Part shown: one piece after another, positions 9,184-44,063 of the stretch | Numbering within the stretch: the first letter of the stretch is position 1 | How the letters are laid out: the number at the start of each line of letters is the position of its first letter | Source of the DNA: Chitinophagales bacterium | GTDB lineage: Bacteria > Bacteroidota > Bacteroidia > Chitinophagales > JADIYW01 | Direction of reading: 5' to 3' | Length of the DNA stretch: 64,000 bases | Assembly (NCBI GenBank): GCA_023957235.1 | Contig: JAMLHI010000009.1 | Span: 24,683 to 88,682 of the forward strand | The notes under the pieces: generated by a model | Seen by the model: only the letters and a program-made list of their open reading frames with translations | Databases searched by the model: none | What the model was told of the DNA's origin: nothing | Position numbers and translations under genes: made by a program

Positions 9184-9192
9184 TTAGTTTTG

Positions 9193-9265: not shown

Positions 9266-9282
9266 ATAATCCTTCTTTAAAA

Positions 9283-9368: not shown

Positions 9369-9384
9369 CTCCATTTTCAAATTG

Positions 9385-23152: not shown

Positions 23153-23884
23153 ATGATGTTCCGAAAAAATATACAAATCATTCTTCCCTGCTTATTCATA
23201 CTATTGATTTCATGTAAAAAGAAGGATGATTTTACTCCTATAAAATATGCAGAAGAAACTATCTTGTATCCTGAAAACATTGAAGATATTGATGCATTGC
23301 TTATGGCAATCAGAGATGATATAGGTATAGATTTATTAAATAAAGAAATCTCAGTTGATTTTGCGTTTGCAAGATTTGGTCAAACCAATTCAGTAGATGT
23401 GGGAGATGTTAAACTGAATAATATCCTTCTTTCAAAAACTTCTGCCAATCAGTATATCTCTCCAATAGATAAGAATAATTTTAATCTAAACTCCGGCATT
23501 CAAAATAAATGGGAAATCGAAGGAGGGAGTGACTACTCAGCCTTTAATAAAAGTGCTAGTATAAAAATGCCCGCTAAGATTACTCTTGACCAAGTGCCAG
23601 ACGTCATTCCATTAAATCAAGCTATTACATTAAAAGTAAATGGATTGCCTAGTAACGCTCAAGCTATCATTTGGCAATTGAAGGATATCAATAATCAATA
23701 TATTCAAAAGGAAACTACTACATCACAATTGACAATCACTATTGATGAATTAAAGCAACTCTCTTTGGGTGAAAACAGTTTATTAAAAGTAGCTGCTTAT
23801 TCATTAGAAAAATGGGAAATGGATGGGAAAAAATTTGCTTTCTTAAACGAGTTTGTAGAAACTAAAAATATACAACTTAAATAA
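23153..23884 (+). CDS. Hypothetical lipoprotein, probably surface-exposed
   Basis: SPII signal LLIS-C followed by KKKDD (Lys then acidic residues, resembling the Bacteroidota lipoprotein export signal); family not recognised. Confidence 0.7.
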   Translation: MMFRKNIQIILPCLFILLISCKKKDDFTPIKYAEETILYPENIEDIDALLMAIRDDIGIDLLNKEISVDFAFARFGQTNSVDVGDVKLNNILLSKTSANQYISPIDKNNFNLNSGIQNKWEIEGGSDYSAFNKSASIKMPAKITLDQVPDVIPLNQAITLKVNGLPSNAQAIIWQLKDINNQYIQKETTTSQLTITIDELKQLSLGENSLLKVAAYSLEKWEMDGKKFAFLNEFVETKNIQLK

Positions 23885-23943
23885 GTCCCGCCCTTCGTGT
23901 AGTTGCAAAACAATAACTACAGCATATTTCAAACAACCTTTCA
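23883..23943. repeat. Left copy of imperfect ~61-bp direct repeat
   Basis: aagtcccgcccttcgtgtagttgcaaaacaataactacagc-atatttcaaacaacctttca; 39/41 and 17/20 identity to 43999-44063, separated by one 4-nt gap. Confidence 0.92.
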
Positions 23944-24400
23944 CCTGACTTTATCAATACAACACCCATTAGGAATTATTCGCTTAAAAGTATTTTTCAA
24001 ATAGTATGGTGATAGATTTATATTTATCTGTCAGGAGCTTGGTGAAATGAAACATTAGAAGCAAATCCCAAACACCTATCGAAATTCTTAAGGCTCTTTC
24101 CACTTGCCATAAATAGCTAAATAATTTGTAAACGTCGTTTTTTGTCAGGTTTGTGTTGGAGACATACCCATTAAACCCGTCCCTATTTTCGTTTTCTGCA
24201 GTCTTTGAATAATCAATCTGTACACTTACATTGTTGTCAATGGTTAAGAATATATTGTATCTGCGATTATTGATTTTACCCTTGGCTATCAGTCAGCTTT
24301 TATATTTTTTTCCAATCGTTTAATACCTTTCTCGTGATTATTATGATAAGGGAATCAAACGATGCGAACAACTATTTTGTCCACATCGCCATGATTAAAA
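23944..24400 (-). pseudogene. IS1634-family (IS4-superfamily DDE) transposase remnant, frameshifted and 5'-truncated
   Basis: Manual translation: NNHEKGIKRLEKN, then frameshifts, then GKINNRRYNIFLTIDNNVSVQIDYSK...DGFNGYVSNTNLTKNDVYKLFSYLWQVERALRISIGVWDLLLMFHFT (24280 to 23984); resembles the IS1634 C-terminal DGLKGY.TNT.L...LW.VE.AFR...RP.FH pattern as recalled; candidate terminal sequence CCTGACTT at 23944. Confidence 0.82.
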
Positions 24401-24519
24401 AACACTTCTTACCTACATAGCTATTTTATAAAATCAAATAAAAAGCTACCAATAGAATTAAACAATATTTTAGATAAAAACTTCATACTGTTGAATAGAT
24501 TTATAAATTTACAATTAAT

Positions 24520-25695
24520 ATGTCCTTACTGATTTTATTGTTAATTGTAGTTGCTTTTTTGTTACTTACCTTTTCACTCCATCTATTCTTTACTAAGCAA
24601 GGTAGCCATACCATCAATTATCTTTTAGGCTTTAGTTTTTTTGCTAGATTCTTTCAAGTAGGTGTTTTTCTAATTATTATCACTTCATACACCGTTTTAC
24701 TTCCTATTACTCATTTATTCCCAATTGTTCAAATTATATATACTATTCTTTACTTTGGAAGCCTGGCGAGCTCTTATTTATATATTCGTTGTTTCATTAA
24801 TGGAGAAAAATATTTAAAAAAAAGTGATTTAATCCATCTAGTTCCAATAATTTTTATAATAATTCATCTATTTCCATATTCTCTAATTGGAAAAATAAAT
24901 TGGGAAATAATAGCCAAAGAGATTATCACTGGAGGGCAACTCTCCATTACAGAAAAATTGGGTGTATTCCCTAACATATTGTATAATATTGTACAACTAT
25001 TATTTTCTGTATTATATTTATTGGCCTCATGGGCAGTATTATTCAGTTCTAAATTCTTTAGTAGAGAATGGAATATCAATAAAAAATGGATGATATTTTT
25101 TATTAGCACCTCTACTTTTTTTAAGCTATTAGGATTTTTTGCTATGGTTTATGGTCAAGGAGGACGCACCTATACAAACAGTCTGTTTTTTTTATCTCTT
25201 TGTAGTATTGTATTACTATACATGTTACTTTTTGTAATTTATCAACCACAAATATTGTATGGTTATATTGTATTATCAGAAAATTACAAAGTACAAGAAA
25301 CAAAAGTATCTGTCTCAACAAAAAATACATCTTTAAAAAAAATACCGAATAAAGAGTACGTGGAATGGGTCAATCTGCTTAAAAATCATGTAGAAACCAA
25401 AAAATTATTTTTAAAGAAGGATTTGCAAATGAAAGATTTATCTAATGAAGCTGATCTGCCAGCACATAATTGTTCTGAAGTGATTAATGCTGTTTTAGAT
25501 AAAAATTTTAGAGATTGGATTAACGGTTACCGAATTCAATATTTTATTGAACAATATCCTATCTTAAAGGATAATATGACTGTAGAAGCTGTAGCTTCTC
25601 AATCAGGTTTTAAAAATATGAGAACCTTTTATAGTGCATTTAAAAAAGAGACCAACCAAAGCCCTACTGAATATTTCAAAAATAGAATGATATAG
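24520..25695 (+). CDS. Membrane-anchored (multi-TM) AraC-family transcriptional regulator
   Basis: About seven hydrophobic segments in the N-terminal 240 aa; C-terminal HTH LFLKKDLQMKDLS...SEVINAVLDKNFRDWINGYRI...VASQSGFKNMRTFYSAFKKETNQSPTEY. Confidence 0.9.
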   Translation: MSLLILLLIVVAFLLLTFSLHLFFTKQGSHTINYLLGFSFFARFFQVGVFLIIITSYTVLLPITHLFPIVQIIYTILYFGSLASSYLYIRCFINGEKYLKKSDLIHLVPIIFIIIHLFPYSLIGKINWEIIAKEIITGGQLSITEKLGVFPNILYNIVQLLFSVLYLLASWAVLFSSKFFSREWNINKKWMIFFISTSTFFKLLGFFAMVYGQGGRTYTNSLFFLSLCSIVLLYMLLFVIYQPQILYGYIVLSENYKVQETKVSVSTKNTSLKKIPNKEYVEWVNLLKNHVETKKLFLKKDLQMKDLSNEADLPAHNCSEVINAVLDKNFRDWINGYRIQYFIEQYPILKDNMTVEAVASQSGFKNMRTFYSAFKKETNQSPTEYFKNRMI

Positions 25696-25814
25696 TTGCA
25701 TCTAAAGGCAATCAACTCACATTGGGTTTATATATTTTTATGTTTTAGCTTTCTTCTTACTGTAAGCATGTCCTTCATTTTAGTTTCAAAAACTCCGTAA
25801 GAGCTTGAAATTTA

Positions 25815-25835
25815 TGTAACAATTCAAAAGTTACA
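25815..25835. promoter_or_regulatory. Candidate operator (inverted repeat) upstream of the giant gene
   Basis: TGTAAC-N9-GTTACA, 84 nt upstream of ATG 25920. Confidence 0.3.
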
Positions 25836-25919
25836 CAAGCAATAGATGGCTAATGTCCCACACTAATAGTAAAAATCATTTTTTTACAAGTCAATTTAGA
25901 ATTAGTATAAATTATTTTT

Positions 25920-28900
25920 ATGAAAAAAAATGCTACAAACTTAAATTCTCTATGCCATAATATAACCTCTGTCTTTCATAAAAGATTTCACAAGATTTTT
26001 TTTATATTATCTATTATGATAAACCTATTCATAGGTCATATCAATGCACAATCTATTATTTATGTAGATAGTAGTAAAAGTTCAAGTGGAATAGGTAATT
26101 CATGGAGTACTGCTTTTAAAACTTTAAAAGAAGCGACAATATTAGCCAATAATAATTCATCTATAAAAGAAATTAGAATTGCTAAAGGGACTTACTTTTC
26201 TACAACAAATACAAATCGTGATTCCACTTTTTTAATTAGTAGAGGTGACATCAGATTATATGGAGGATATCCAAATGGAGGAGGAACAAGAAACGTATCT
26301 TTATATCCTACTATACTCAGTGGGGATATTGGCACACTTGGAACCCATACTGATAATAGCTATCACGTAATGGTGATTGCAGGACTAGCATCTGGAGATG
26401 ATAGCGTGATAATTGATGGATTAAAAATCCGTTTTGGAAGAGCAGATGCAAATAATAGTGTAGTCTATAATGGTCAAAGCATTCCAAGAAGTTACGGAGG
26501 AGGAATAGCAATAAAAAATAATTCAAATGCTTATAAAATAAGTATAAGAAATACAATTATTTCAGGTAATTATGCTTCTAACAACGGCGCAGGAATAAAT
26601 ATAGAAGCCACCATTTCTACTTTTATCAATTGCTTGTTTTCTGGTAACTACGCTGATTATGGTGGAGCTGCTTTTAATAATTCAAACTCACATACCAATT
26701 ATATCAATTGTACGTTTGGAGGAAATCACGATAATCATTCGGGAGGAGCCATGAGAAACTCATCCTCGAATCCTGTTATCACCAATTGCATCATATATGG
26801 TAATGATGGAGGAATATCCAATAACAATAGCATTCCAGCAATTACTTATTCATTGGTGCAAGGGCTAACTGATATTTCAAATGGCAATTTGAATGGCACA
26901 AGTAATCCGAACTTTGTATCTCCTGTGCCAGCAGGAACAGTTAATATTAATGGAGATTATAGCTTACAATTGGCCAGCACATGCATTAACAAAGGAAATA
27001 ACTCAGTACTAAATGGAGTGGCTACTGATCTTGCAGGGAATACTCGTATATACAATAGCCAAGTAGAATTAGGTGCTTATGAGTTTGTTTTTTGCACAGC
27101 CACCGCCATCCTATATGTAGATAGTAGCAAATCTATCTCGGGAGATGGAGCATCTTGGAATACTGCTTTTAAAACTTTAGCAGAAGCTATAACTCGACAA
27201 TCTTGTTCAAATATCAAGGAAATACATGTAGCCAAAGGAACCTATTATCCTACTGGTGAGCAAGTAAATTTTAACAGAGATTCTACTTTTCTTATTACAA
27301 GAGGAGATATTAAAATACTTGGTGGATATCCTTCAGGGGGTGGCACAAGAAATCCATCGACATATCCTACAATATTAAGTGGGGATATCGGTGGCTCAAA
27401 TAATATATTAGACAATAGTTACCACCTCATGACTATCTCAGGAATAGGAAATACTGAAGATAGCATTATCATTGATGGATTTAGATTTATTCATTCAAAC
27501 GCTAATGGAAGTGGAACTAAAAATTTTAACGGAGCAAATATTGCTAGAAATGATGGAGGCGGTATAATCATTTGGAATGCATTAAATACTGTTAAAACAC
27601 AAATCCGAAATTGTATATTCTCTTCTAATAGAGCTGAAGATGCTGGAGGTGCAATCTTTATCGAGAATTCGACTCCTTTATTAGTCAATCTATTAGTTTC
27701 CGGAAATCTTGCAAATTATGGAGGAGGCATAGCTTTAGTTAGCGCATCTCATGCCAAATTAATCAACTGTACTATTGCTGGAAATCGCTGTGGAAGCTCA
27801 GGCGCAGGTGGAGCAATAAGAAATTCTAGCTCAAATCCAACAATAGTCAACACTATTATTTATGATAATAATTCTGGCATTTCTAATAATTCATCTATAC
27901 CCAACATATCTTATTCATTAGTGCAGAGCTTAACCTCTATAGCAAATGGAAATCTAAATGGAAATCTAATCAACCCAAACTTCATTCTTCCAATTGATTA
28001 TGCTCAGACTCCAAACTTACTAGGTGACTATCGACTACAAGCTGGTAGTGCATGCATCAACAAAGGAAACAATACTGAAGTTCCTAGTTTTATCACTACT
28101 GATTTAGAAGGAAATGAACGAATAAATTTAGGCACTGTCGAAATGGGTGCTTATGAATATGTAAACTGCCCCAATATAGAAATTGTATATGTGGATAGTA
28201 GTGTAGCATTCTCAGGAAATGGAGGAACATGGGCTAATGCATATAAAACCCTTTCAGAGGCTTTGAATTTGATACATTGCTATAATATCAAAGAAATTAG
28301 AATCGCTGGTGGAACCTATTTCCCCACTGGACTACAAAATGGCACCAATAAAGATTCTACTTTTCTCATAACCAGAGGAGGAATTAAGATAATAGGTGGA
28401 TATCCAAGTGGTGGAGGACAGAGGAATCCCGCAATTAACAAAACAATATTAAGCGGTGATATAGGTGCAAAAAACAATAATACTGACAATAATTACCATA
28501 TAATGATTATTGCTGGTATTACTTCAGGTGCAGATAGTATTATAATTGACGGGCTTAATTTCCAATGGGCCAATGCGAATGGAAGTGGTTCAAAAGTTTA
28601 TAATGGACAGACCATAGAAAGAAATAATGGAGGAGGCTTAGTAATATGGAATGTACTCAACGGCGAAAAAGTTCAAGTGAGCAATTGTGTCTTTTCTGCA
28701 AATAGAGCTGCAGATGGCGGTGCTGGATTATATCTAACTAATTCTACTCCTCTAATCATCAATTCACTTTTCAGCGGAAATCTTGCTAACTTTGGAGGAG
28801 CTACAGTTAATTATAATCAATCTCACGCAAAGTATATTAATTGTACTTTTGCAGGCAATAAAGCTGGTGATTCTGGTGGAGCGATGAGAAATTCTTCCTC

Positions 28901-31900
28901 GAACCCTACCCTTAAAAACACTATCATTTTTGGAAATAATTCTGGAGTATCTAACAACTCTTCAGTCCCATTATATTATAACTCGTTGGTGCAGGGGTTA
29001 ACATCGACCTCCAATGGTAACTTGAATGGTAATACTTCCAATCCATATTTTATATTCACAATAGATGCATCATTAGCACCAACCGACGAAGGTGATTATC
29101 GTATTCAGTCATTAGGAGAAGGGATTAATGTAGGAACTAATACTGCAATCCCATCTAATATTACAACTGATTTATATGGAAACACAAGGATTTATGGTAG
29201 CACGGTAGATATTGGAGCATTTGAGGTAAGCTGTTCAAGTACTATATCTATATATGTGGATAGTGCAAAAACTGCTTCTGGAAATGGAGAATCGTGGGCT
29301 ACCGCTTACAAAACAATGTCAGAGGCTCTAGCGAAGGCTCAGTTTTGTTCAAGCATTAAAAACATTTATGTAGCAAAGGGTACTTACTTCCCTAGTAGCA
29401 TCAATAATCAAGATGGAACATTTCTGATTTCCAGAGGTGGTTTGAAAATATTAGGAGGCTATCCATCAGGCGGAGGAGTTAGAAATATTAATACAAACAA
29501 AACGATTTTAAGTGGAGACATTGGCACTAGAGAATTAGATACGGACAATAGCTATCATATCATGATAATTGCTGGACTATCTAGCGGAACAGATAGTGTT
29601 ATTTTAGATGGATTCCAATTTGTCTGGGGCAAAGCTGTCGGTTCCGGAACAAGACTTTATAATACGTTTAACATCCCTAGAAATGCTGGAGGAGGATTGG
29701 TATTATGGTCTAATGCCAACGGAGCTAAAATTCAAATAAGAAACTGCATTTTCTCTGCAAATAGAGCAGATGACATTGGAGGGGCATTTTATAGTGCTTC
29801 TTCATCAGCATCTGTGGTGAATTGTTTATTCTCAGGAAATCTTGCTAACTACGGTGGAGCTATGTCTAATGCCAACTCTTCTAATACAAGAATTATTAAT
29901 TGTACTTTTTCAGGAAATAGAGCCGGACAGTCAGGTGGAGCAATTAGAAATTCTAACTCAAGTCCCACTCTAATCAATTCTATTATTTATGGAAACAATA
30001 GTGCAATTTCCAACAACTCCTCTACTACAAATATCTCATACTCATTAGTTCAAGATTTTAGTGGCACGGCATCAGGAAATATAGATGTATCAGCAAACTT
30101 ATACGGAACAATAAATAATCCATTGTTTATCTATGAAATCAATCCAAATCTTGCTCCTACTTTAGAAGGGAATTTCAAAGTCAACTTGATAAGTCCAGTC
30201 ATCAATACAGGCTCAACTGTAGTTGAAAACACCAGCTCATCTATTGATCTAGCAGGAAATATTAGAATTTCAGATGGCACTATTGATCTTGGAGCATATG
30301 AAAATTTTTGTGATGCGCCCTCTACTATTTATGTTGATAATAGTCGTTCGACTTCAGGCAATGGATATACTTGGAATCAAGCATTTAAAAACTTGACCGA
30401 AGCTTTAGCATTAGCTCAATCTTGTAATCAAGTCAATACAATTCTAATTGCAGAAGGAACATATTATCCAAATTTTCAAACAGACAGAACTGCTTCTTTT
30501 GTCATATCTAGAGGAAATATAAGATTAATTGGGGGCTATCCTAGTGGCGGAGGAGAAAGAAATTTACAAACACATCCTACAATTTTAAGTGGAGATATTG
30601 GTGTAAAAGATACTCATTCAGACAATAGCTATCATGTACTTGTAATTGCTGATCTCGAATCTTCAGCCGACAGTGTCATAATAGATGGAGTTAAAATATT
30701 TTGGGGCAGAGCTGATGGAGGGGGAACAAAACTAATAAACGGACAAACAATATTACAAAACCAAGGTGGTGGACTTGTATTATTTAACAATCAAAATGGC
30801 AGTAAAGTACAAATAAGAAATACAGAAATTTCTGGAAATTATGCAAGTGATATAGGAGCTGGGGTTTTTCTTCAATCATTATCAAACAGTGCACCATCTA
30901 CCTCATTTTATAATTGTTTAATAGCTGGCAATCATGCAAATTATGGAGGAGGTGTTGGAAATGTTTCTTCATCACCTACTTTTGTAAACACTACTATTGC
31001 TGGAAACAGAGGAGGAAACACAGGAGGAGGAATGCGAAATTCAAACTCCTACCCTATCTTGAGAAATACAATTATATACGGCAACTCCAATGGCATATCT
31101 AATGTAGGTAGTTCGACTCCTATTATTGAATACTCTTTGATTCAGGGGCTCACAAGCACTGCTAATAATAATCTAAATGGAAATACGACTTCTCCAAATT
31201 TTAAATATTTGGCAGACGCAAATACAGCTCCAACAATATCAGGAGACTATAGCGTATTGTTGAATAGCTCTATTATAGATAAAGGAAATAACTCACTTCT
31301 CCCTTCATTTATGAATCAAGACTTAAACAGTAATTTGAGAATTAACAATAGTACTATTGACTTAGGAGCATACGAATCAGGATGTGAAGTATCATTCAAT
31401 ACTTTGTACGTGGACAGTAGCCAAAGTATTTCGGGAGATGGTTCTACTTGGCTCAAAGCGTATAAAACATTGAACGAAGCACTTTTACTTGCTAATTCGT
31501 GTACGAACATAAAAAATATTTTTGTTGCTAAAGGAACATACTATCCTACTGATTTATCAGATAGAGATGCTACCTTTTTAATTTCAAGAGGTGATTTAAG
31601 AATTTATGGTGGCTATTCCAATGGTGGTGTAATAAGAAACATATATGCAAATCCAACAATATTAAGCGGGGATATAGGTGCAATAAATTCAAATACAGAC
31701 AATAGTTTCCACGTAATGATAGCTGCTGGAATTGGCGCAGAAGAAGATAGCCTAATTTTAGATGGACTTTCTGTTTTTTGGGGAAATGCAAATGGAAGTG
31801 GATCAAAATTTTTTAATAATCAATCTATACCCAGAAATAGTGCAGGTGGTTTAACGATGTGGAACAATGGAAATGCAGATAAAATCCTCATTAAAAACTG

Positions 31901-34900: not shown

Positions 34901-37900
34901 TTATTTGTATAATACAACCGTTGCAGGAAATATGGCTACTGCTGGTGGAGGTCTGGATGCTTATGGTCGTGGAAGTGGTGCCACAATTGAAATTAACAAC
35001 TCAATTATATGGGGAAATAGCTCTATGATATCTAGCGATAGATGTGTAGTAAACACCAATTATTCCATACTAGATAATCAGTGGAATGGAGATTACAACC
35101 AATATGAATCTCCCCTATTTAAAAATGATCCTTCTTTTGCTACTGCTCCTTTTACACAAGGAGATTATTCCATAGGTCAATGTAGTCCAGCAGTAAATAC
35201 TGGAAATAATTCATATAGTATCATACCTAAATTCGATATTCAAGGAAAAAGCAGATATATAGGAAGTATAGATAAAGGCGCTTTTGAGTATCAAGATGGT
35301 GAAATATTACATGGAATAAAGTGGTATGTCAAAGAAGGGCAATCAGGAGACGGCACTTCATGGGCTACAGCATCAGGAGATTTACAAGCTATCATTAACA
35401 ATGCTACTTGTGGAGATACAATCCTCGTCGCCAAAGGAACATACTTACCTAGTAGAAAAGCAGACCAGCTAAATGTTCTTAGCCCAAATAATAGAGACAA
35501 TGCTTTTGTATTAAAATCTAATATCTCAATCTATGGAGGTTTCATAGGAAACGAAACTAATATTGCTCAAAGAGATCTTACCGATACCCTCAACTACTCC
35601 ATTTTGAGCGGAGACTTTTTAGGAAATGATGGATTGAACCCAGATGCAAATGGATTACCAAATTTTACCAATAATGGTGAAAATGCCTACCACATTTTAG
35701 TATTATCAAATGTAACTAACATTATTTTAGATGGATTCTCTATTAGTGGAGGTAGAGCCACTGAGAACAACTCATTAAAAGTAAACAAAGTAAATATCAA
35801 CAGAAATAGAGGTGCAGGCTTGACAATTAATCAAGCATATAATATTCAAATTGACAATTGTACTTTCCAAAATAGCCATGCATCAGATAATGGAGGGGCT
35901 ATTTATACCGAAAAATCTAAAATTACTATTAAAAACACTAAGGCAATTAATAATAAAGCAGATTACGGTGGAGCTTTAGGACTTAATGATGGGAATTCTG
36001 TTATAACTAATTGTATCATAGAGAAAAATCGTGCTTATCAAAAAGGAGGAGGAATTTATACTACTAAAAACAATCTAATAATAGATTCAAATACAATCAT
36101 CAGTAACCAAGCCCAAGAAGGTGGAGCACTCTTTGCTAATGAATCAGTTACAACAAATTTGAAATATTGTAAAATATCAGGAAATAGAGCAACAGATGGT
36201 GGTGGCGGTGGCATCTATAATAGTAGCTCTTCTAACCTAATAGCACTCAATTCATTAATTACTGGAAATGTTTCAACCAAATCTGGTGCAGCAATAAGAA
36301 ATAACAATACTGCTACTATCATAGGATGTACTATAGCAGGAAACAATTCCTACGACGGCGCAGGTGGGATTCGCAATGAAAATGACAAGTCACAATTAGT
36401 ACAAAACTGCATTATATATGGAAATAATTTAGGAGTTTCAGGAGCGGGGAACTATAAATACTCACTAGTGCAAAGTGGTGTTACCGGAAATACCATTTAC
36501 ACTGAAAATCCCTATTTTGTCAATTTACCACCATACGATACAGCCCCTTTTACTCATGGCGATTTTCACACTTCAGGATGTTGGCCAGTGATTAATAATG
36601 GAAGTGTTGACGGCATTTCAAAATTTATTTTCAATAAAGATTTTGATGGCAATCCTCGAATTAAAAATGACATAATAGATATCGGCGTTTATGAAACAGA
36701 AACACCAAGCCAAAAACTGTATGTTAAAGTTGGTGGTGCGGGCAATCAATCAGGTAGTTCATGGGCTAATGCAATGGGAGATTTACAACAAGCAATTAAC
36801 ATGGTATGTACCGGAGACTCTATCTTCATCGCTGAAGGTAAATATTTCCCTAATCGCAAAGCTAATGCTTTAAATATTATTACTTTAAACGATAGAAACA
36901 ACTCCTTCGTCTTAAAAAACAATATCAAATTATTTGGAGGCTTTAAGGGTACTGAATCTAGTTTATCAGAAAGAGTCATCAGCGGCATTTCGGGCACAAC
37001 ACTATCAGGAGATTTCACTGGAAATGATAGTGCATACTATGATTATAATACAAATAAAATCACATTATTAAATAACGGCGAAAATGCATTTCAAGTTATT
37101 ATAGCATCCGGATTAGAAAATATTATACTAGATGGATTTTTGATACAGGGAGGCAATACAGTAGGAAGTAGTAGTAGTTATAACCTAAAAGGAAATAACA
37201 TCAATAGAAATCATGGAGGCGGAGGACAAATCATAGACAATAAAAACTTTACTTTTAACAACCTGACATTCCAAAGGAATAGAGCCTCTTCTTATGGCGG
37301 TGGGCTAGCTATACGCAATTCTAATGGAACTATGAATAATTGTGAATTCCTTTACAACTTTTCTGACTATGCTGGAGGATTATGGGTAGATAATTCTACT
37401 ATCAATATAAAAGATATTTCTTTAGTTTCAAATACAGTATCAACTGATGGAGGAGGACTAGCTATAGGTACTCAATCATCATTAAACATCACTAATTTAT
37501 TCTCTAATAGCAATTATGCAAGTCAAAATGGTGGAGGAATAAAAGTAAATAATTCAAATGTGAAATGTAACACTTGTAACTTTGCCTACAACCTTGCGAA
37601 AAATGGGTCTGGTGGAGGTGTGATGAATACCACTAACGCTAATCTTAATTTGTCAAATACCAATATATACAATAATACAGCTGGAGATGATCATGGCGGA
37701 GGAGTTTGGAATGGTATCGAGTCTTCATTAACCATATCAAAAGGATTAATAAAAAATAATATAGCAGACAATGAAGGTGGAGGTCTTTATAACTACTCAA
37801 ATAGTACAGCATATTTAAAGTATGTAGAAATTACTGATAATACTGCATACAGAGGTGGGGGAATAGCAACTTCTGGGAATGGAACTGAACAAAACAGTGG

Positions 37901-40900
37901 AACAAGCTTAGGCTCTGCTGTCTCTTATAATGGTGGATATACATCAGTAACAAACAGTTTAATAGCCAGAAATTTAGCTAGAAAAGACGGAGGAGGAATA
38001 TTTAATAATTTCAGTTCCAAAACAGATATAGTCAATGTGACCGTAACAGCTAATACTGCGGATAATGGCGGAGGTATATATAATGATGCTGAAAAATGTC
38101 CTCCAATTCCTAATATTGGACAATATTACAAATGCTCTGACGACATAAGCACTTCTATTATAAAAAATAGTATAGTATGGGGAAATATAGTTACTAATAA
38201 TGGAGTTGGAATATATGAAGGTGTTTCTAATTATAGTTCTAAAATAGAAAATTCATTTATTGAAGGAAATAAAAATTGGTCAGATGGAAATATCAATACG
38301 GCTTATATAACACCTGAGTTTAAGAGTTTTGAAACTGGAGATTATACTTTAGTTGGCTCTAGTCTTTGTGTCAATAGTGGAAGCAATAGCTATCAATCGG
38401 GAAATGTAGATTTATTAAATCAGCCTAGAGTAGCATTTACTTATATAGACATGGGGGCTTACGAATATCAACAAGAACCTAATCAAGAAAATATTCGTTT
38501 TGTACGTCAAGGAGCTACAGGTGATGGAACCACTTGGGATAGAGCATCTGGAAATATCCAAGCAATGATTAATTCTCCTGGTGTTCGCCAAGTATGGGTA
38601 GCAGAAGGAACTTATATTCCAAGTGGAAATGGATTTATCTTAAAAAACTACGTAACAATTTATGGAGGTTTTCCTAATACCGGAAACCCATCGCTCAGCA
38701 GTCGAAACTGGGATACATATCCAACTATTTTATCTGGAAATAATATCAATAGAGTGGTTTACAATAATTTTACGGTCAATGACTCTCTCAATTCAACAGC
38801 TATTTTAAATGGATTTATTATAAAAGATGGCAACACCAATGGAAATGGTGGAGGAATGTACAATAATAATGCATCACCAAAAATAGAAAATGTCACTTTT
38901 GTCAATAATAGTGCCACTGGAGGACTAGGAGGAGGAGCTGTATATAATTCAGCATCAAATCCTATATTCAAAAATTGTATTTTCAAAGAAAATATCACTA
39001 CCGCAAATGGTGGGGCAATGTTTAATGAGCAATCTAATCCATTGATCATAAACGGATTAATTTTCTCAAATTCAGCAACTGGAGGAAGTGCAATAGCTGC
39101 TATTAATAACTCTACTTATCAACTAGTCAATACGACTATAACTAAAAATATATCTACTGCAGGAGATGTAATATTCAATGATGGGGCAAACACTGAAGCA
39201 AAAATCTTCAACTCAATAATATATAACAACCCTGACATTAATAATAATTTTACACCGAATATAGTCAATGATCAAAATGGAGCAAATACAACTGCACAGC
39301 ATTCATTAATACAATTTGGATTCCAAGGTATTGGGGTCATATCTTCTGATCCATTATTTACAAATCCTAATATTAATGACTTCTCACTTCAAGAAATGAG
39401 CCCTGCTATTAATAGTGGAAATAATCAATCTTATACTCAAACAGGTCAAGTATTAGAGGCTGATATAGACTTAAAGTGTCAAAATAGATTGATGGATTCT
39501 ATAATTGATATAGGAGCTTATGAGTTCAAAGCAGATATTGTCCCTATCAGATATGTAAAAGTTGGCGGAACTGGTAACGGAAAATCCTGGTCTGATGCTT
39601 CGGGTAATTTACAAAGCATGATTGATGCTAGAGGTGTTGAAGAAGTTTGGGTTGCAGCAGGAATCTACACTAGTCCTATTAGTGGATTTAGATTAAAAAA
39701 CAATGTAAAAGTATATGGCGCTTTCCCTTCTACTGGCAACCCTGAATTTTCTGACAGAAATATTCAATTAAATACTACTATCTTATCTGGAGAAACCACT
39801 AGAAGAATCTTCAATAACAATTTCGAAACAACACCTGAACTTGACAATTCAGCGGTTTTAGATGGCTTCACCTTGAAAGATGGATATTCAGCCGAAAATG
39901 GAGCAGCCATGTATAATTTCAATGCCTCACCTACCTTGTCTAATCTTATATTTACCAATAACTTAACCACTTCAGAAGGAGGAGCCTTATATAACTTACA
40001 ATCTAATCCAATCATTGAAAAATGTAAATTTATTTCAAATTTAGCTACAACCAAAGGAGGTGCAATTTGCAATATTACTTCTGAACCTATCATCACTAAT
40101 TCATTATTTATTCAAAATAATTCTGCTAGCGGAGGTGCAATATTTGCAGCAAATGGCTCTTCATATAAAATTACAAATAGTACTTTTAGCCAAAACACCT
40201 CTCCTTTAGGAACACTTTATCACTATGGTTCAGCAACTCAACCACAAATATATAATAGTATCTTCTATGGCAACAGTTCTGCAATTATAGAAGAAGATTC
40301 TTCTATAACTATCAAGGTCAATAATATTATTGAAGGAATAAATAGCGATAGCCTCAACTTTGATTTTGACCCAATGTTTGTAAATCCTTCCTTAGGCGAT
40401 TATACTTTACAACAAGGGAGTTCTGCAATAAATCAAGGAGAAAACTCGTGGATAATAAATGATTTGGAAGAAACAGAAATACTTAAAGACTTAGATTTGC
40501 ACCCAAGAATTTATGACTATTCTAATGGTGGAATTATTGATCTAGGAGCTTATGAATATCAAGGAAATACTAATTTTCCTATTCGTTATGTAAAAACAGA
40601 TGGCAAAGGAAATGGTAGCTCTTGGGGCAATGCAGCTGGAAGTCTGCAAGCAATGATGAATGCAAAAGATGTACAACAAGTATGGGTGGCTGAAGGAACT
40701 TATATCAGTGAAAATGATGGATGGCTATTAAAAAACAATGTAACCGTCTTAGGAGGTTTTCCTAACTCTGGAAATCCTCAAATTGAAGACAGAAATTGGA
40801 GTCAACATCCAACCGTTTTATCAGGAAATCATCAAAAAAGAATTTTTAATCATACAGGAATAATTACTAATAATGACTCAGATTCAATTACGATAAATAT

Positions 40901-43745
40901 CATAGACTCTACTGCTATATTAGATGGATTCATCCTAACTCAAGGCTATTCAGAAGAAAATGGAGCTGCAATGTATAACCAATTGGCATCTCCTACTTTA
41001 AGAAACTTAGAATTTACTAATAATCATTCCGTTCAAAATGGAGGAGCTATATACAGCTTGCTATCTAGACTCAATATCTATAATAGTAAATTTTCAAATA
41101 ATACAGCAGATAATTATGGTGGAGCTATAGCCAATGAATATTTCTCAGAAACAAAAGTTTTCAATACTGTTTTCTCAAAAAATACTGCGCAGTTAGGAAG
41201 TGTTTTTTACACAAGCGATACTTCAAAAACAATACTTGTAAATAATACTTTAACAGAAAACATTTCTTCTCAAAATACTGGAGCAATATTCACGTTTGGA
41301 GGAGGTTCAATAATCCAAGTATATAATAGCATCTTATTTCATAATGGTAAAAATATTATAGATTCTTTAGGTGCTCAAACAATCATTTTGAATTCATTAG
41401 TAGAAGGCGGATTTACTGGAAATGGAAATATCGATACAGATCCTTTATTTACTGATGCTATGCAAAATGATTATTCTCTTCAAGAATCCAGCCCTGTCAT
41501 AAATTTAGGTGACAATAATAGCTATCAAAACCAAGGAGGAAATCTACAAAACGATAAAGATTTAGCATTACAATCACGTGTTTACAATTATGCTTCTTCT
41601 GGTATAATTGATATGGGTGCTTATGAATATCAAGGCAATCCTAAGTATCCTATTAGATATGTCAGACAAAATGCAACTGGTAGTGGAACTTCTTGGGGAA
41701 CAGCATCAGGCGATTTACAAGCTATGATAAACAGTTCAGCAGTACAACAGGTTTGGGTAGCTGAAGGCTCCTATTTTAGCACAGGGAATGGATTTATTCT
41801 TAAAAATGGAGTAAAAGTTTTAGGTGGATTTTCGAGTGAAGGAAGTCCAAAGCTAGAAGAAAGAAACCCATTCAATTACAATTCTACCTTATCAGGAAAT
41901 AATGAAAGGAGAGTCTTTTATAATAATTTTTCTCCAAGTGCAAAACTAACTAATTCAGCTGTATTAGATGGCTTTACCATTACTGAAGGCAATCTGAATG
42001 CTAATGGTGCAGGGATGTATAATGCTAATGCTGATCCTATCTTAAAAAACCTAAAATTCACCAACAATCATTCAGGCACTGCAAATGGAGGTGCTATATA
42101 TAATGCAGCTGCAAACCCATTGATAATCAATTGTCAATTCTATGAAAATTCATCCTTGAATAATGGTGGTGCTATTTGTAATGCATCAGGTTCAAAACCC
42201 AATATTATCAACTGTCTGTTTTACGAAAATACTGCTACGAATAATGGTGGAGCTATTTACGCAAATAACGCTTCATCTTATCATCTTATCAATAGTACTG
42301 TTTATAATAACACTGCTAATTCAGGGGGTGGTCTGCATCATGCTGGAAGTACTACACTCCCCTTAGTGAAAAACTCTATTATTTATGGCAATACACAACA
42401 AATTATTAATAGCAGTTCGGCAGTCACTACTGTAGATTACTCTCTAATTCAAGGTGGATATTCAGGCAACCATAATCTCCAAGAAAATCCAACTTTTGAA
42501 AATGTTAATGACAAAAATTTCAACTTATCTTTAGCTTCTCCTGCAATTAATGCCGCTGACAACTCAGCACTTCCCGATTCAATAATAAAAGATTTGAATG
42601 GAAATAATAGAATAGAGCAAGATTTATTAGATATCGGGGCTTTTGAAAACAGAGGCTTCGTGCTGGCTAACACTGCTAATGATACCATTGTTTCTAATCT
42701 TAGTTACCCAAATGAAGAGGGCTGGATTCACTATTACAAATCAGATGATTCTACTTTAGTACTCTCTCTCAATACTCAAAATCAATTTTTAGGCGAGGTA
42801 GAAATCAATTCAATTCTTAATAATAATTTCGGACAAAGCAGCATTGGTTTAATTATGCCTTATGGTCAAACAAAAAATATTTATCCTGCCAACAGAAGCT
42901 GGACTATTCATGCTTCTGAAAGTTTTTCTCAACCAGTAAAAGTAAGATTTTATATTTCAGACTTAGACAGTATAGATATCATGCAAGCAATGCCTTTCCA
43001 TTCTAAAGAACAATTGGTCCTATACAAAGTCAGTGGAAATTATGTTTGGGATACTTCTTCAAATGGTTATTTAGAATATACTTTAGACACTATTGCAGAC
43101 ACTTCAACTTATGTGTATGGGAGTTTCCAAGGTATTCAATATGTCGAATTCATGGTCAATTCTTTCAGTTCTGGAACGATAGCTATGACATTAGATGAAA
43201 GTATTCTTCCTCTCGATTTAATTTCATTTATTGCAGGAGCAGTCAATGACAAAACTCAATTGCAATGGAATACGGTCAACGAGGTCAATGTTTCCCACTT
43301 TGAAATAGAGAGGAGTTCGGATGGAATTCATTGGGAAATATTATCTAGTATAAATGCAACTAACGGGATTGCTCAACAATATACTGCTTGGGACAATGCT
43401 CCACATCAAGGAGACAACTATTATAGATTAAAAATGATAGATATTGATGGCTCCTTTAAATACAGTAAAATTGTCCAAGTATTCTTTGCAAATAATAGCC
43501 TAGCTCCTGATTTCTCAGTCTATCCCAATCCTAGTAAAGGAGATTTTACAATTACTGCAAAAGACATGACTACACCTACTGCAAAAATTCAAATCTTTGA
43601 TGAATTAGGAAGAATGATATTTAACCACCAAATTAAAGAGGGGAAAAACTCAATACATCTAGAGCATCTACCTAGTGGTACATATATATTAAATATCAAT
43701 AGTTCTTTGAATACTAATATCCAAAAAATAATTATAGAGAAATAA
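25920..43745 (+). CDS. Giant (5941 aa) T9SS-secreted protein: 14 tandem right-handed beta-helix / choice-of-anchor-Q-like modules, LPxxLxSF Ig/FN3-like domain, type-A CTD
   Basis: Signal peptide ending INA-Q; modules start YV(D/K)..G.G.(S/T)W..A and end (D/E)xG(A/V)(Y/F)E; GGAI/GGGI repeats; C-terminus ILPLDLISF...YYRLKMIDIDG, FSVYPNPSKG...LPSGTYILNI...KIIIEK. Confidence 0.9.
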   Translation: MKKNATNLNSLCHNITSVFHKRFHKIFFILSIMINLFIGHINAQSIIYVDSSKSSSGIGNSWSTAFKTLKEATILANNNSSIKEIRIAKGTYFSTTNTNRDSTFLISRGDIRLYGGYPNGGGTRNVSLYPTILSGDIGTLGTHTDNSYHVMVIAGLASGDDSVIIDGLKIRFGRADANNSVVYNGQSIPRSYGGGIAIKNNSNAYKISIRNTIISGNYASNNGAGINIEATISTFINCLFSGNYADYGGAAFNNSNSHTNYINCTFGGNHDNHSGGAMRNSSSNPVITNCIIYGNDGGISNNNSIPAITYSLVQGLTDISNGNLNGTSNPNFVSPVPAGTVNINGDYSLQLASTCINKGNNSVLNGVATDLAGNTRIYNSQVELGAYEFVFCTATAILYVDSSKSISGDGASWNTAFKTLAEAITRQSCSNIKEIHVAKGTYYPTGEQVNFNRDSTFLITRGDIKILGGYPSGGGTRNPSTYPTILSGDIGGSNNILDNSYHLMTISGIGNTEDSIIIDGFRFIHSNANGSGTKNFNGANIARNDGGGIIIWNALNTVKTQIRNCIFSSNRAEDAGGAIFIENSTPLLVNLLVSGNLANYGGGIALVSASHAKLINCTIAGNRCGSSGAGGAIRNSSSNPTIVNTIIYDNNSGISNNSSIPNISYSLVQSLTSIANGNLNGNLINPNFILPIDYAQTPNLLGDYRLQAGSACINKGNNTEVPSFITTDLEGNERINLGTVEMGAYEYVNCPNIEIVYVDSSVAFSGNGGTWANAYKTLSEALNLIHCYNIKEIRIAGGTYFPTGLQNGTNKDSTFLITRGGIKIIGGYPSGGGQRNPAINKTILSGDIGAKNNNTDNNYHIMIIAGITSGADSIIIDGLNFQWANANGSGSKVYNGQTIERNNGGGLVIWNVLNGEKVQVSNCVFSANRAADGGAGLYLTNSTPLIINSLFSGNLANFGGATVNYNQSHAKYINCTFAGNKAGDSGGAMRNSSSNPTLKNTIIFGNNSGVSNNSSVPLYYNSLVQGLTSTSNGNLNGNTSNPYFIFTIDASLAPTDEGDYRIQSLGEGINVGTNTAIPSNITTDLYGNTRIYGSTVDIGAFEVSCSSTISIYVDSAKTASGNGESWATAYKTMSEALAKAQFCSSIKNIYVAKGTYFPSSINNQDGTFLISRGGLKILGGYPSGGGVRNINTNKTILSGDIGTRELDTDNSYHIMIIAGLSSGTDSVILDGFQFVWGKAVGSGTRLYNTFNIPRNAGGGLVLWSNANGAKIQIRNCIFSANRADDIGGAFYSASSSASVVNCLFSGNLANYGGAMSNANSSNTRIINCTFSGNRAGQSGGAIRNSNSSPTLINSIIYGNNSAISNNSSTTNISYSLVQDFSGTASGNIDVSANLYGTINNPLFIYEINPNLAPTLEGNFKVNLISPVINTGSTVVENTSSSIDLAGNIRISDGTIDLGAYENFCDAPSTIYVDNSRSTSGNGYTWNQAFKNLTEALALAQSCNQVNTILIAEGTYYPNFQTDRTASFVISRGNIRLIGGYPSGGGERNLQTHPTILSGDIGVKDTHSDNSYHVLVIADLESSADSVIIDGVKIFWGRADGGGTKLINGQTILQNQGGGLVLFNNQNGSKVQIRNTEISGNYASDIGAGVFLQSLSNSAPSTSFYNCLIAGNHANYGGGVGNVSSSPTFVNTTIAGNRGGNTGGGMRNSNSYPILRNTIIYGNSNGISNVGSSTPIIEYSLIQGLTSTANNNLNGNTTSPNFKYLADANTAPTISGDYSVLLNSSIIDKGNNSLLPSFMNQDLNSNLRINNSTIDLGAYESGCEVSFNTLYVDSSQSISGDGSTWLKAYKTLNEALLLANSCTNIKNIFVAKGTYYPTDLSDRDATFLISRGDLRIYGGYSNGGVIRNIYANPTILSGDIGAINSNTDNSFHVMIAAGIGAEEDSLILDGLSVFWGNANGSGSKFFNNQSIPRNSAGGLTMWNNGNADKILIKNCIISGNKAEDAGGGIYNNSTSATYLNCLVTGNLADYGGGFANIQSSHVKLINNTIASNRSNNGSAMRNSNSNPEITNSLIYYNSNGTISNNGSSNPKISYSLIQDKFVETDSNINGNLDPKLVAPANYANAPTIGGQYTLLEGSSTLDKGDNFAYQTSGGSIAFNVDLANNIRVYDYNYEGRIEIGAYEFVIANSGNTDISVIRYVKPNGTGNGTSWANASGDLQEMINISNRNDQIWIATGKYYPNRRIQEIGTITPKNRDNAFLLKTGIAIYGGFAGFENILNDRDIELNPTILSGDFNNNDSISISQDSIVSISYKTENAYHVLVGANETQFSLHDLIIEGGNANGDGEVKVNNVNISRIVGGLFAGNGIQNITISNCTFQKGYANHTGGAIDIENGDNIKILDSDIKYNRANHGGGFTTRNTSQYNNYYIENTTILVNNANKDGGGVFCRSGNTKITNTIISGNTAMTGMGGGVYASRIEKGSDCKMTLTGCLVTGNVAATAGGGLRLAVYFFDKAFEEPEKTNINHLTSAVHSCTFSGNRAESGGGISLKEKGGLLEIQNSIIWENSSSIKAHNTDIFLTSSIIDGSFNGKNIFNRNPSFILAPSFSLAPFTGGDFRVQDCSYSINLGENSIVKILKDIDGNPRIYGENIDLGAYESPIKVPVKNYKYVKQGSTGDGSSWANASGDLQDIINKSDCNIDIYVAKGTYVPIRQANNPYSITTMNRDNAFVLKESINIYGGFAGTETDISQRDLSNPNNVSILSGDFLNNDSVSVDSNGVLNYTNNQENAYHVVVISNSNGIELNGFKIKGGNANNTNTNTINKIGVDRNSGGGIVVNSSTNIDIKNCTIEHNMASNAGGGMFYYASRNFNVLHSTIQKNKATYGGGIMTRNTVRSDSSKYENCNILSNNSIEEGGGIAIKSGTSYVINTKICGNQSLSSHGGGAYAYRAPHSEGVEAFFVNCQVTGNKAKGNGGGLRFAHHFDGGYGSDDVSWYAKFYLYNTTVAGNMATAGGGLDAYGRGSGATIEINNSIIWGNSSMISSDRCVVNTNYSILDNQWNGDYNQYESPLFKNDPSFATAPFTQGDYSIGQCSPAVNTGNNSYSIIPKFDIQGKSRYIGSIDKGAFEYQDGEILHGIKWYVKEGQSGDGTSWATASGDLQAIINNATCGDTILVAKGTYLPSRKADQLNVLSPNNRDNAFVLKSNISIYGGFIGNETNIAQRDLTDTLNYSILSGDFLGNDGLNPDANGLPNFTNNGENAYHILVLSNVTNIILDGFSISGGRATENNSLKVNKVNINRNRGAGLTINQAYNIQIDNCTFQNSHASDNGGAIYTEKSKITIKNTKAINNKADYGGALGLNDGNSVITNCIIEKNRAYQKGGGIYTTKNNLIIDSNTIISNQAQEGGALFANESVTTNLKYCKISGNRATDGGGGGIYNSSSSNLIALNSLITGNVSTKSGAAIRNNNTATIIGCTIAGNNSYDGAGGIRNENDKSQLVQNCIIYGNNLGVSGAGNYKYSLVQSGVTGNTIYTENPYFVNLPPYDTAPFTHGDFHTSGCWPVINNGSVDGISKFIFNKDFDGNPRIKNDIIDIGVYETETPSQKLYVKVGGAGNQSGSSWANAMGDLQQAINMVCTGDSIFIAEGKYFPNRKANALNIITLNDRNNSFVLKNNIKLFGGFKGTESSLSERVISGISGTTLSGDFTGNDSAYYDYNTNKITLLNNGENAFQVIIASGLENIILDGFLIQGGNTVGSSSSYNLKGNNINRNHGGGGQIIDNKNFTFNNLTFQRNRASSYGGGLAIRNSNGTMNNCEFLYNFSDYAGGLWVDNSTINIKDISLVSNTVSTDGGGLAIGTQSSLNITNLFSNSNYASQNGGGIKVNNSNVKCNTCNFAYNLAKNGSGGGVMNTTNANLNLSNTNIYNNTAGDDHGGGVWNGIESSLTISKGLIKNNIADNEGGGLYNYSNSTAYLKYVEITDNTAYRGGGIATSGNGTEQNSGTSLGSAVSYNGGYTSVTNSLIARNLARKDGGGIFNNFSSKTDIVNVTVTANTADNGGGIYNDAEKCPPIPNIGQYYKCSDDISTSIIKNSIVWGNIVTNNGVGIYEGVSNYSSKIENSFIEGNKNWSDGNINTAYITPEFKSFETGDYTLVGSSLCVNSGSNSYQSGNVDLLNQPRVAFTYIDMGAYEYQQEPNQENIRFVRQGATGDGTTWDRASGNIQAMINSPGVRQVWVAEGTYIPSGNGFILKNYVTIYGGFPNTGNPSLSSRNWDTYPTILSGNNINRVVYNNFTVNDSLNSTAILNGFIIKDGNTNGNGGGMYNNNASPKIENVTFVNNSATGGLGGGAVYNSASNPIFKNCIFKENITTANGGAMFNEQSNPLIINGLIFSNSATGGSAIAAINNSTYQLVNTTITKNISTAGDVIFNDGANTEAKIFNSIIYNNPDINNNFTPNIVNDQNGANTTAQHSLIQFGFQGIGVISSDPLFTNPNINDFSLQEMSPAINSGNNQSYTQTGQVLEADIDLKCQNRLMDSIIDIGAYEFKADIVPIRYVKVGGTGNGKSWSDASGNLQSMIDARGVEEVWVAAGIYTSPISGFRLKNNVKVYGAFPSTGNPEFSDRNIQLNTTILSGETTRRIFNNNFETTPELDNSAVLDGFTLKDGYSAENGAAMYNFNASPTLSNLIFTNNLTTSEGGALYNLQSNPIIEKCKFISNLATTKGGAICNITSEPIITNSLFIQNNSASGGAIFAANGSSYKITNSTFSQNTSPLGTLYHYGSATQPQIYNSIFYGNSSAIIEEDSSITIKVNNIIEGINSDSLNFDFDPMFVNPSLGDYTLQQGSSAINQGENSWIINDLEETEILKDLDLHPRIYDYSNGGIIDLGAYEYQGNTNFPIRYVKTDGKGNGSSWGNAAGSLQAMMNAKDVQQVWVAEGTYISENDGWLLKNNVTVLGGFPNSGNPQIEDRNWSQHPTVLSGNHQKRIFNHTGIITNNDSDSITINIIDSTAILDGFILTQGYSEENGAAMYNQLASPTLRNLEFTNNHSVQNGGAIYSLLSRLNIYNSKFSNNTADNYGGAIANEYFSETKVFNTVFSKNTAQLGSVFYTSDTSKTILVNNTLTENISSQNTGAIFTFGGGSIIQVYNSILFHNGKNIIDSLGAQTIILNSLVEGGFTGNGNIDTDPLFTDAMQNDYSLQESSPVINLGDNNSYQNQGGNLQNDKDLALQSRVYNYASSGIIDMGAYEYQGNPKYPIRYVRQNATGSGTSWGTASGDLQAMINSSAVQQVWVAEGSYFSTGNGFILKNGVKVLGGFSSEGSPKLEERNPFNYNSTLSGNNERRVFYNNFSPSAKLTNSAVLDGFTITEGNLNANGAGMYNANADPILKNLKFTNNHSGTANGGAIYNAAANPLIINCQFYENSSLNNGGAICNASGSKPNIINCLFYENTATNNGGAIYANNASSYHLINSTVYNNTANSGGGLHHAGSTTLPLVKNSIIYGNTQQIINSSSAVTTVDYSLIQGGYSGNHNLQENPTFENVNDKNFNLSLASPAINAADNSALPDSIIKDLNGNNRIEQDLLDIGAFENRGFVLANTANDTIVSNLSYPNEEGWIHYYKSDDSTLVLSLNTQNQFLGEVEINSILNNNFGQSSIGLIMPYGQTKNIYPANRSWTIHASESFSQPVKVRFYISDLDSIDIMQAMPFHSKEQLVLYKVSGNYVWDTSSNGYLEYTLDTIADTSTYVYGSFQGIQYVEFMVNSFSSGTIAMTLDESILPLDLISFIAGAVNDKTQLQWNTVNEVNVSHFEIERSSDGIHWEILSSINATNGIAQQYTAWDNAPHQGDNYYRLKMIDIDGSFKYSKIVQVFFANNSLAPDFSVYPNPSKGDFTITAKDMTTPTAKIQIFDELGRMIFNHQIKEGKNSIHLEHLPSGTYILNINSSLNTNIQKIIIEK
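26055..42650 (+). repeat. 14 protein-level tandem modules (~345-590 aa), diverged at DNA level
   Basis: Approximate module ends at 27083, 28157, 29225, 30302, 31376, 32465, 33881, 35288, 36695, 38465, 39524, 40556, 41627 and 42647. Confidence 0.9.
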
Positions 43746-43998
43746 GATTTAATAGACATTTTTTAGGCTATCCGCTATAATCCCTATTATCATTAGCTTT
43801 GAGGGCAATCAAAGGTGATGAATGAAAAAGTGATTTTACTATTGTAAAAGGATTTAGTAAGAAAAATAGTATTGTTAAAGGTGTTCAGTTAAACAATTGC
43901 ACTAATTAGCAAACAGTTTTTCAGCAATAATAGGCTATTTTAGTGTAAACCTATTTTAGGACAAGGCATTTTGTTTTTCAAAACAAGTTTTGTGTTAA

Positions 43999-44063
43999 AA
44001 GTCTCGCCCTTCGGGTAGTTGCAAAACAATAACTACAGCTTCTATATTTCAATTAGCCTTTCA
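43999..44063. repeat. Right copy of imperfect direct repeat (includes batE stop codon and last six codons)
   Basis: aagtctcgcccttcgggtagttgcaaaacaataactacagc-ttct-atatttcaattagcctttca; contains a gtagtt/aactac hairpin. Confidence 0.92.

Follow-up and report, generated by a model that had tools for sequence, protein, structure and literature searches.

How did a 17.8-kb gene for a predicted secreted protein come to stand between a short lipoprotein gene and the end of a bat operon? The question is raised by a 64,000-nt stretch of a Chitinophagales genome (GenBank assembly GCA_023957235.1, contig JAMLHI010000009.1, positions 24,683 to 88,682 of the forward strand; hereafter the window), in which an island of about 20 kb separates the lipoprotein gene from batE. 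The island contains an AraC-type regulator gene, the giant gene and a remnant of an insertion sequence (IS), and is bracketed by two copies of a repeat that includes the 3' end of batE. The original prediction, made from the letters alone, had read this arrangement as a transposon-like unit that delivered its cargo and then lost its mobility gene. We found that the duplication step was one of IS1634-family transposition, and we favour, with a probability of about 0.55, a history in which the cargo came in with that same event.

Two copies of the batE 3' end bracket the island

The left copy of the repeat (23885-23943) and the right copy (44001-44063) align with 39 of 41 nt identical, followed by a 4-nt gap (TTCT, present in the right copy only) and a further 17 identities in 20 nt; outside the gap, 56 of 59 aligned positions are identical. 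Within this alignment lies a core of 35 nt with one mismatch (23889-23923 and 44005-44039), and a stretch of 25 nt is identical in the two copies, with differences on both its sides. The start of the repeat may lie 6-8 nt further left (TTAAATAAGTC versus TTAAA--AGTC), in which case the lipoprotein stop codon would be included; its length is 59-69 nt with the batE tail. The right copy (DR-R) spans the functional batE stop (44042-44044) and the last six codons, ERLIEI*. The left copy (DR-L) consists of spacer with a weak hairpin and a displaced pseudo-copy of these six codons, which on the minus strand reads ERLFEI and has no stop. The presence of the batE tail in DR-L identifies the repeat as duplicated target DNA. 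Similarity between the copies stops at 23943/44063, and an IS1634-family terminus opens with the next base, 23944. The alignment, the batE end on the right with its displaced tail on the left, and the loss of similarity exactly where the IS remnant begins had all been described in the original prediction, and were borne out.

A degenerate 35-nt pattern built on the repeat matched twice in the window, against 0.00 matches expected from shuffled sequences, and a search of the whole 3.0-Mb genome likewise found two copies only (E<0.1; next matches E > 0.1), which rules out a REP-like or otherwise dispersed intergenic repeat. The hairpin common to both copies has a folding energy of -6 to -7 kcal/mol, no better than that of shuffled sequences, so that a role as a strong shared terminator is unsupported, and a consensus scan for terminators found none. 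An assembly artefact was ruled out by Logan contigs from four independent metagenome studies (wastewater, sludge, activated sludge and 'soil'), which agreed with the window base for base: the left junction showed 0 differences in contigs from all four studies and the right junction 0 differences in two metagenome runs, and both repeat copies were found 20,116 nt apart on single contigs of 43.6 and 47.3 kb. No alternative junction was present among the Logan contigs, which drop rare variants. The arrangement is real, and it is apparently fixed in the species.

An IS1634-family terminus directly adjoins the left copy

The sequence adjoining DR-L proved to be a true relic of the IS1634 family by three lines of evidence, namely a match to the NCBIfam profile NF033559 (IS1634-type DDE transposase, long N3-C1 spacer; cut-off 100 bits), tblastn similarity and a terminus match. 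The motif CCTGACTT stands at 23944, the first base after DR-L, which is its single plus-strand occurrence in the window (83 occurrences in 6.0 M positions genome-wide). Positions 23944-23968 aligned ungapped with a full-length P0353-type element, 18 of 25 nt agreeing with its right end from terminus base 1 (shuffle p about 0.0015), and the alignment runs on through the final transposase codons (WVTR* versus WVLY*), which the relic has kept together with the stop at 23954-23956. The orientation of the terminus is as expected, downstream of the transposase stop and with the transposase relic on the minus strand. Because the terminus begins at the first base after DR-L, the junction between repeat and IS is an original transposition junction, behind which about 165 nt were later lost by internal deletion.

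The transposase fragment corresponds to residues about 337-454 of a 518-residue protein (tblastn with P0065; 40% identity over 108 residues, 347-454, E 1.6e-19). The minus-strand stop-to-stop frame 23984-24292 matched positions 321-392 of the 483 positions of NF033559 (E 8.7e-8) with 31.6 bits, which lies below the whole-protein cut-off because only a fragment remains; the full-length relatives P0065 and P0085 scored 384 and 354 bits. Searching 1.8 billion representatives with the relic (phmmer) returned 190 matches, the full-length ones among them being 508-518 residues long. About 1.1 kb encoding the N-terminal part has been deleted from the relic, as have about 165 nt ahead of the terminus, leaving residues about 337-454 and the last about 5 codons. 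Thus, the relic has the family profile and a terminus abutting the repeat, and lacks a recognisable second terminus and an intact transposase gene. No intact IS1634-family member was found in the same assembly, where the best match reached 97 bits, below the cut-off. More decayed fragments of the family lie at C11:21274-21768, C11:301556-301753 and C10:95819-95992, and a solo CCTGACTTGTCC-type end lies at C1:565264.

Related intact elements make long target duplications

Intact members of the family were gathered from the same bacterial family as the window genome, and 19 copies were taken with their flanks. In genome G010, a perfect direct repeat abutted both ends of a 1,834-bp element in all 11 copies, with lengths of 75, 331, 348, 82, 109, 131, 127, 170, 146, 222 and 75 bp. 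The 1,601-bp element of G018 had duplications of 428, 258, 86 and 105 bp in four of its five copies, so that perfect target duplications of 75-428 bp abutting both ends were seen in 15 of the 16 intact copies of these two genomes. A copy in G043, which belongs to the same genus as the window genome, showed a duplication of about 45-53 bp, and P0353-type (P0065-like) elements on metagenome contigs showed duplications of 84 and 847 bp. Several P0353-type contigs share flanks, suggesting duplications longer than the assembled flanks. Termini starting with CCTGACTT were found in three of the four element types (G018, G043 and the P0353 type); the ends of the G010 element differ (TCTCGAGTTTGACAC). 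For comparison, direct repeats of 8-514 bp have been reported for IS1634 and IS1549, versus 5-6 bp for most of the family (PMC2266710). The duplications of 45-850 bp made by related intact elements agree with the unusually long and variable IS1634-type duplications invoked in the original prediction, and show cleanly that the IS1634-family elements of this bacterial family make long duplications as a rule. Given these relatives, the window repeat is very probably an IS1634-type target duplication.

The site is empty in a sister species

An empty site was found in a sister species represented by the Chitinophagales metagenome-assembled genome JAMLHJ01 (G040), the sole close relative with respect to the lipoprotein gene in the species-representative collection. 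There, the lipoprotein ortholog (70% identity, L016 10004-10732) is followed by batE on the opposite strand with the two stops 6 nt apart. Five genes per side, about 10 kb each, are collinear with the window and the bat operon is syntenic, with 57-96% identity between the flanking core genes of the two genomes. Collinearity in blastn stops at 23884, the lipoprotein stop codon supplying the last collinear base, and restarts at 44041. The empty site contains no repeat copy and no hairpin. Hence, the tidy convergent pair that the original prediction expected after removal of the island does exist in G040, but the hairpin spacer that the two genes were to share is not there. More distant genomes of the genus carry the lipoprotein gene in other contexts and are hence uninformative for the empty site.

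The cargo pair and its other loci

The open reading frames (ORFs) of the island are those of the regulator, the giant gene and the IS relic only, and the cargo accounts for 19.5 kb. The regulator consists of a multi-pass hydrophobic N-terminal part and a C-terminal AraC-type helix-turn-helix domain; its orthologs, with 59-60% identity, stand at another locus in G040 (59%) and in L056, a close relative of G040. The giant gene is one uninterrupted ORF, and the last 75 residues of its product match Por_Secre_tail (PF18962; E 7.5e-15, 55 bits versus a cut-off of 27), the sorting domain of the type IX secretion system (T9SS). Full-length orthologs of the giant protein were found in G040 (5,938 residues, 72% identity), L059 (5,932 residues, 74%) and L062 (64%). 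Among homologs of this membrane-anchored regulator with 40-50% identity, which occur on many Chitinophagales contigs, a T9SS-sorted beta-helix or LRR-like protein was always encoded directly downstream; these partners range from 882 to about 5,940 residues and stand in unrelated neighbourhoods (contigs including L050, L051, L053, L059 and L060). To judge from this recurrence, the pair is a conserved regulator-plus-target module and no accidental neighbourhood, and its giant version looks like the product of repeat expansion in a common two-gene module.

The G+C content and skews of the island are those of its flanks with no break at the borders, so that composition lends no support to a foreign origin. 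The divergence of the cargo (59-72% amino acid identity) falls within the core-gene range of 57-96% and the cargo therefore looks orthologous, which fits vertical descent. With ortholog-level identity (72-74%) and host-like G+C, the cargo is a conserved chromosomal module that was most likely relocated within the lineage and did not arrive as new foreign genes. To this extent, the delivery proposed in the original prediction would rather be a relocation.

In G040, the gene order is the aspartate-semialdehyde dehydrogenase gene (ASD), an MFP-AcrB-OEP efflux operon, the giant gene, the AraC-type regulator gene and a Cys/Met pyridoxal-phosphate (PLP) enzyme gene (CysMet). The ASD and CysMet orthologs of the window genome adjoin with a 512-nt spacer (C1:398854-399365), and the 25-kb G040 block is absent; no relic of the pair, of the efflux operon or of an IS was found in this spacer, which has no match in the window genome or in G040. 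ASD and CysMet are not adjacent in other genomes of the genus, so the polarity of the site cannot be read there. L056 shows the same AraC/CysMet side as G040, in L059 the pair lies beside a paralogous CysMet gene at a third locus, and on the metagenome contig L062 the giant gene adjoins orthologous OEP/AcrB genes. The expectation that the AraC-giant gene pair would be met at other loci in relatives was thus confirmed in G040, L056, L059 and L062. A DUF4411 gene and an M78-peptidase gene are inserted between the giant and OEP genes in L062 (14955-16594); such pairs are frequent in mobile or defence contexts. In the tree of giant proteins, L062 is the outgroup, the inner nodes of which have supports of 86/99 and 83/98. 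Because this outgroup shares the efflux linkage, the efflux-linked site would be the older one and the window site derived, as far as the cargo gene tree and a few genomes tell.

The G040 pair is itself bracketed by a direct repeat of ~100 nt (201646-201744 versus 221214-221311 of C19; 76/100 identities, E 2e-15). Beyond the giant gene, the repeat coincides with the functional 3' end of the convergent TolC-like OEP gene; upstream of the AraC-type gene stands a frame-shifted pseudo-copy of that end. The geometry is the same as in the window, with a repeat of unrelated sequence. The pseudo-copy is also present in L056/L057 (L056 6039-6135), where its identity is 80% with the functional copy and 71% with the G040 pseudo-copy, a pattern that independent decay would produce. 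For the G040 repeat, an old IS1634-type duplication is the guess that suggests itself. No IS1634 relic or CCTGACTT terminus was found beside the pair at nine other loci; the IS relic accompanies the pair only in the window genome, where the pair has moved. A comparison of the window island with the G040 copy revealed no conserved ends.

The right end of the island and the flanking genes

Inside the right end of the island, no AAGTCAGG was found at up to 2 mismatches, and no inverted repeats were found at the two inner island ends. The right end carries a different trace of mobile DNA, a solo terminal repeat of a 1,467-bp IS3-family element (Table 1). Its outer end faces DR-R at a distance of 30 nt, the sequence diverges on its inner side, and it is the single such relic in the window. 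The complete element encodes orfA (144 residues) and orfB (321 residues; 249 bits on NF033516 IS3) and has seven full copies elsewhere in the same genome; since four of these are identical, the element was active recently. Isolated 31-mers of high depth were seen in all four metagenomes because the solo end belongs to this multicopy element.

On the right flank, batE is the last gene of a batA-E-type operon that extends to about 50215, and its neighbours match the Pfam families BatD, VWA and BatA. Five tRNA genes are clustered on the minus strand at 7738-9457, ~14 kb to the left of the island and not at its border. Rfam gave no match in or near the island, the tRNAs at 7738-9457 being the only ones.

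Table 1. Features of the island and its flanks, and full copies of the IS3-family element. Positions refer to the window unless another contig of the same genome is named.
Feature	Position	Strand	Basis
Lipoprotein-like gene, 243 aa, left flank	23153..23884	+	ORF list; no Pfam family
DR-L, left target-site duplication copy	23885..23943 (start possibly 23877)	no strand	Alignment and pattern search
IS1634-family terminus, end downstream of transposase gene	23944..23972	-	CCTGACTT start and alignment to P0353-type element
IS1634-family transposase, internal fragment, 118 residues / 354 nt, without start	23987..24340	-	tblastn with P0065
Cargo gene 1, 391-aa regulator	24520..25695	+	Pfam HTH_18 and HTH_AraC at residues 308-387
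Cargo gene 2, 5,941-aa right-handed beta-helix repeat protein	25920..43745	+	Pfam Beta_helix (7 stretches) and Por_Secre_tail
Solo 30-nt left terminal repeat of 1,467-bp IS3-family element	43938..43968	-	29/30 identity to element end
DR-R, right target-site duplication copy	43999..44063 (start possibly 43995)	no strand	Alignment and pattern search
batE (TPR and SH3), right flank	44042..44770	-	Pfam TPR/SH3_3; last gene of batA-E-type operon
IS3-family full copies, same genome	C3:8079-9545, C3:17403-18869, C10:139758-141224, C14:3859-5325		
IS3-family full copies, same genome (continued)	C13:15684-17146, C12:44399-45865, C12:291118-292576		

How the cargo may have arrived

In the history that we favour, the long target-site duplication was left by a single transposition of an IS1634-family element, which landed in the short spacer that separated the lipoprotein gene from batE. 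The element ends were joined to target positions about 65 nt apart, one of them beside the stop of the lipoprotein gene and the second 20 nt into batE, and repair synthesis copied the stretch between them, giving an intact batE 3' end on the right and a useless copy on the left. Most likely, the regulator gene and the 17.8-kb T9SS beta-helix gene were already part of the transposed unit, which would have been a composite built from two IS copies or a single IS that used a distant or surrogate far end. Comparison with relatives suggests that the pair was taken from the older chromosomal site, the one linked to the RND efflux operon there. Afterwards, the transposase gene would have decayed to the 354-nt internal fragment and the terminus, the distal IS end would have been lost, and an IS3-family element would have arrived near the right end and left again. 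Of the transposon-like unit originally proposed, the IS relic and the duplication stand, and the journey of the cargo together with the IS is the likelier reading. A composite transposon in the strict sense, with two copies of the same IS around the cargo, was not found, as there is a single IS1634-type relic, on the left.

Several observations weigh against this history. Within the 30 nt inside DR-R there was no significant match to six IS ends (shuffle p 0.03 to 0.8), the best match to IS1634 ends being the 6-mer ACAAGT, and tblastn found no transposase similarity in the 253 nt between the giant-gene stop and DR-R (43746-43998). The two internal deletions in the IS relic mean that several later events are needed under any model, and we know of no precedent for the use of a surrogate end in the IS1634 family. 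At the inner boundaries of the G040 repeat, no IS1634 terminus or relic was found. The donor site is suggested by a moderately supported cargo gene tree (83-86% bootstrap) and few genomes, and a transfer of the pair from a close relative is possible.

A live alternative that we regard as less likely is that the IS inserted alone with its long duplication and that the 19.5-kb segment with the AraC-type and giant genes lodged inside it later, by recombination between IS copies, with a second transposon or by illegitimate recombination. That second event would have cost the transposase gene its N-terminal two thirds and the IS its far end, in line with the truncation of the transposase on the cargo side (residue about 337) and the lack of a recognisable distal terminus; the duplication and the IS terminus are explained equally well, and the solo IS3-family end near the right junction tells that other mobile DNA visited the same spot. 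However, the extra insertion would have to be traceless, as no direct or inverted repeats were found flanking the cargo inside the IS remains, and a deletion of more than 1 kb of IS DNA would have to halt a few bases from an undamaged DR-R. The pair also shows signs of moving as a unit elsewhere, given that it is bracketed in G040 by a long repeat at a different locus. For these reasons, arrival of the cargo with the duplicating transposition is preferred. The differences on both sides of the 25-nt identical core, together with the fact that two of the three substitutions in the batE tail fall within one Leu codon with Leu kept, could be taken as the hybrid copies, with an identical core and diverged arms, that are left when a circle carrying the pair and a batE-tail-like segment recombines at the batE 3' end in a Campbell-type or att-like integration, by a site-specific recombinase or through homology. 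This route seems very improbable: a genuine transposon terminus abuts the repeat, and the Leu codon of the outgroup G040 is CTG, so that CTA and TTG need one change each and no coding selection is required. As for an integrative genomic island with att sites, the island has no recombinase gene and shares no att core with the G040 repeat, the unrelated sequence of which speaks against a site-specific enzyme.

That the island is ancestral and was lost from the sister genome, or that the bracketing copies are a REP-like repeat or an artefact of assembly, is barely credible. In favour of an ancestral island one may cite that a single genome shows the empty site and that the lipoprotein gene stands in other contexts in more distant members of the genus; against it, the sister genome has the pair elsewhere, at a locus whose efflux linkage is shared by the outgroup L062, its empty site is devoid of a repeat copy and hairpin, and the IS terminus marks an insertion junction. 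A bolder extension of the preferred transposition history is that the pair is a long-term passenger of an IS1634-family 'transporter' that hopped repeatedly within this Chitinophagales lineage. The orthologous pair is found at three or more loci in close relatives, a duplication of 60-100 nt brackets it at two of them, and at both the duplication rebuilds the 3' end of a convergent neighbour gene; even so, we consider this idea doubtful.

Relation to known elements and significance

Two members of the family have been reported with long variable direct repeats, IS1549 of Mycobacterium smegmatis and IS1634 (PMC2266710), the latter from Mycoplasma mycoides subsp. mycoides SC (Vilei, Nicolet & Frey 1999, as cited in PMC1798306). 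The window element shares with them the transposase family (NF033559), a target duplication of tens of bases that varies between related copies, and the sparing of the 3' end of the gene that was hit. Unlike theirs, its duplication brackets 20 kb and not an IS of 1.6-1.9 kb, its far end is unrecognisable, its transposase survives as a decayed fragment with about 40% identity to the closest full-length protein, and its host belongs to the Chitinophagales. In M. mycoides PG1, IS1634-flanked segments of 13 kb and 8 kb are tandem duplications and not insertions at a distant site (PMC1798306). As in Tn5, Tn10 and the PG1 segments, a chromosomal segment of many kb is associated in the window with a DDE-type IS of the IS4 superfamily, and as in composite transposons the segment stands at a new position with a target duplication. 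The window differs from Tn5 and Tn10 in having one IS relic and, in place of resistance or metabolic genes, a regulator and a giant T9SS protein as cargo.

ISEcp1, an element of the IS1380 family that makes 5-bp duplications, mobilises adjacent DNA through a surrogate distal end. The likeness to the window is that a single good IS end could move its neighbours, and that at the right junction the duplication abuts non-IS sequence; to our knowledge, such behaviour has been shown neither for the IS1634 family nor for the window element.

The original prediction was largely supported, and all the checks proposed with it turned out in its favour. The locus is a clear example of a known process and offers no new mechanism, since the movement of large chromosomal segments by IS elements and long duplications of the IS1634 type were known before. 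The 'unusual size and composition' claimed in the original prediction overstated its novelty in this respect, and the cargo is not exotic. What stands out is the size and nature of the cargo, and the presence of the same module at several loci in close relatives. The window thus provides a clean, datable case in which a 17.8-kb gene for a type IX-secreted surface protein of 5,941 residues has moved with its regulator, and in which the footprint identifies the responsible transposon family. It is further evidence that whole IS1634-family clades in Bacteroidota normally produce long variable target duplications, which are then not an oddity of two elements, and such duplications bear on an unexplained step of the transposition mechanism. 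For annotation, a displaced gene tail next to a short CCTGACTT-type terminus can mark an old insertion after the transposase has nearly gone. If the pair were indeed the passenger of a repeatedly hopping transporter, long duplications would let a 20-kb unit land on the ends of genes without killing them, and the giant adhesin-like gene would be a mobile trait of these bacteria and not a fixed chromosomal one.

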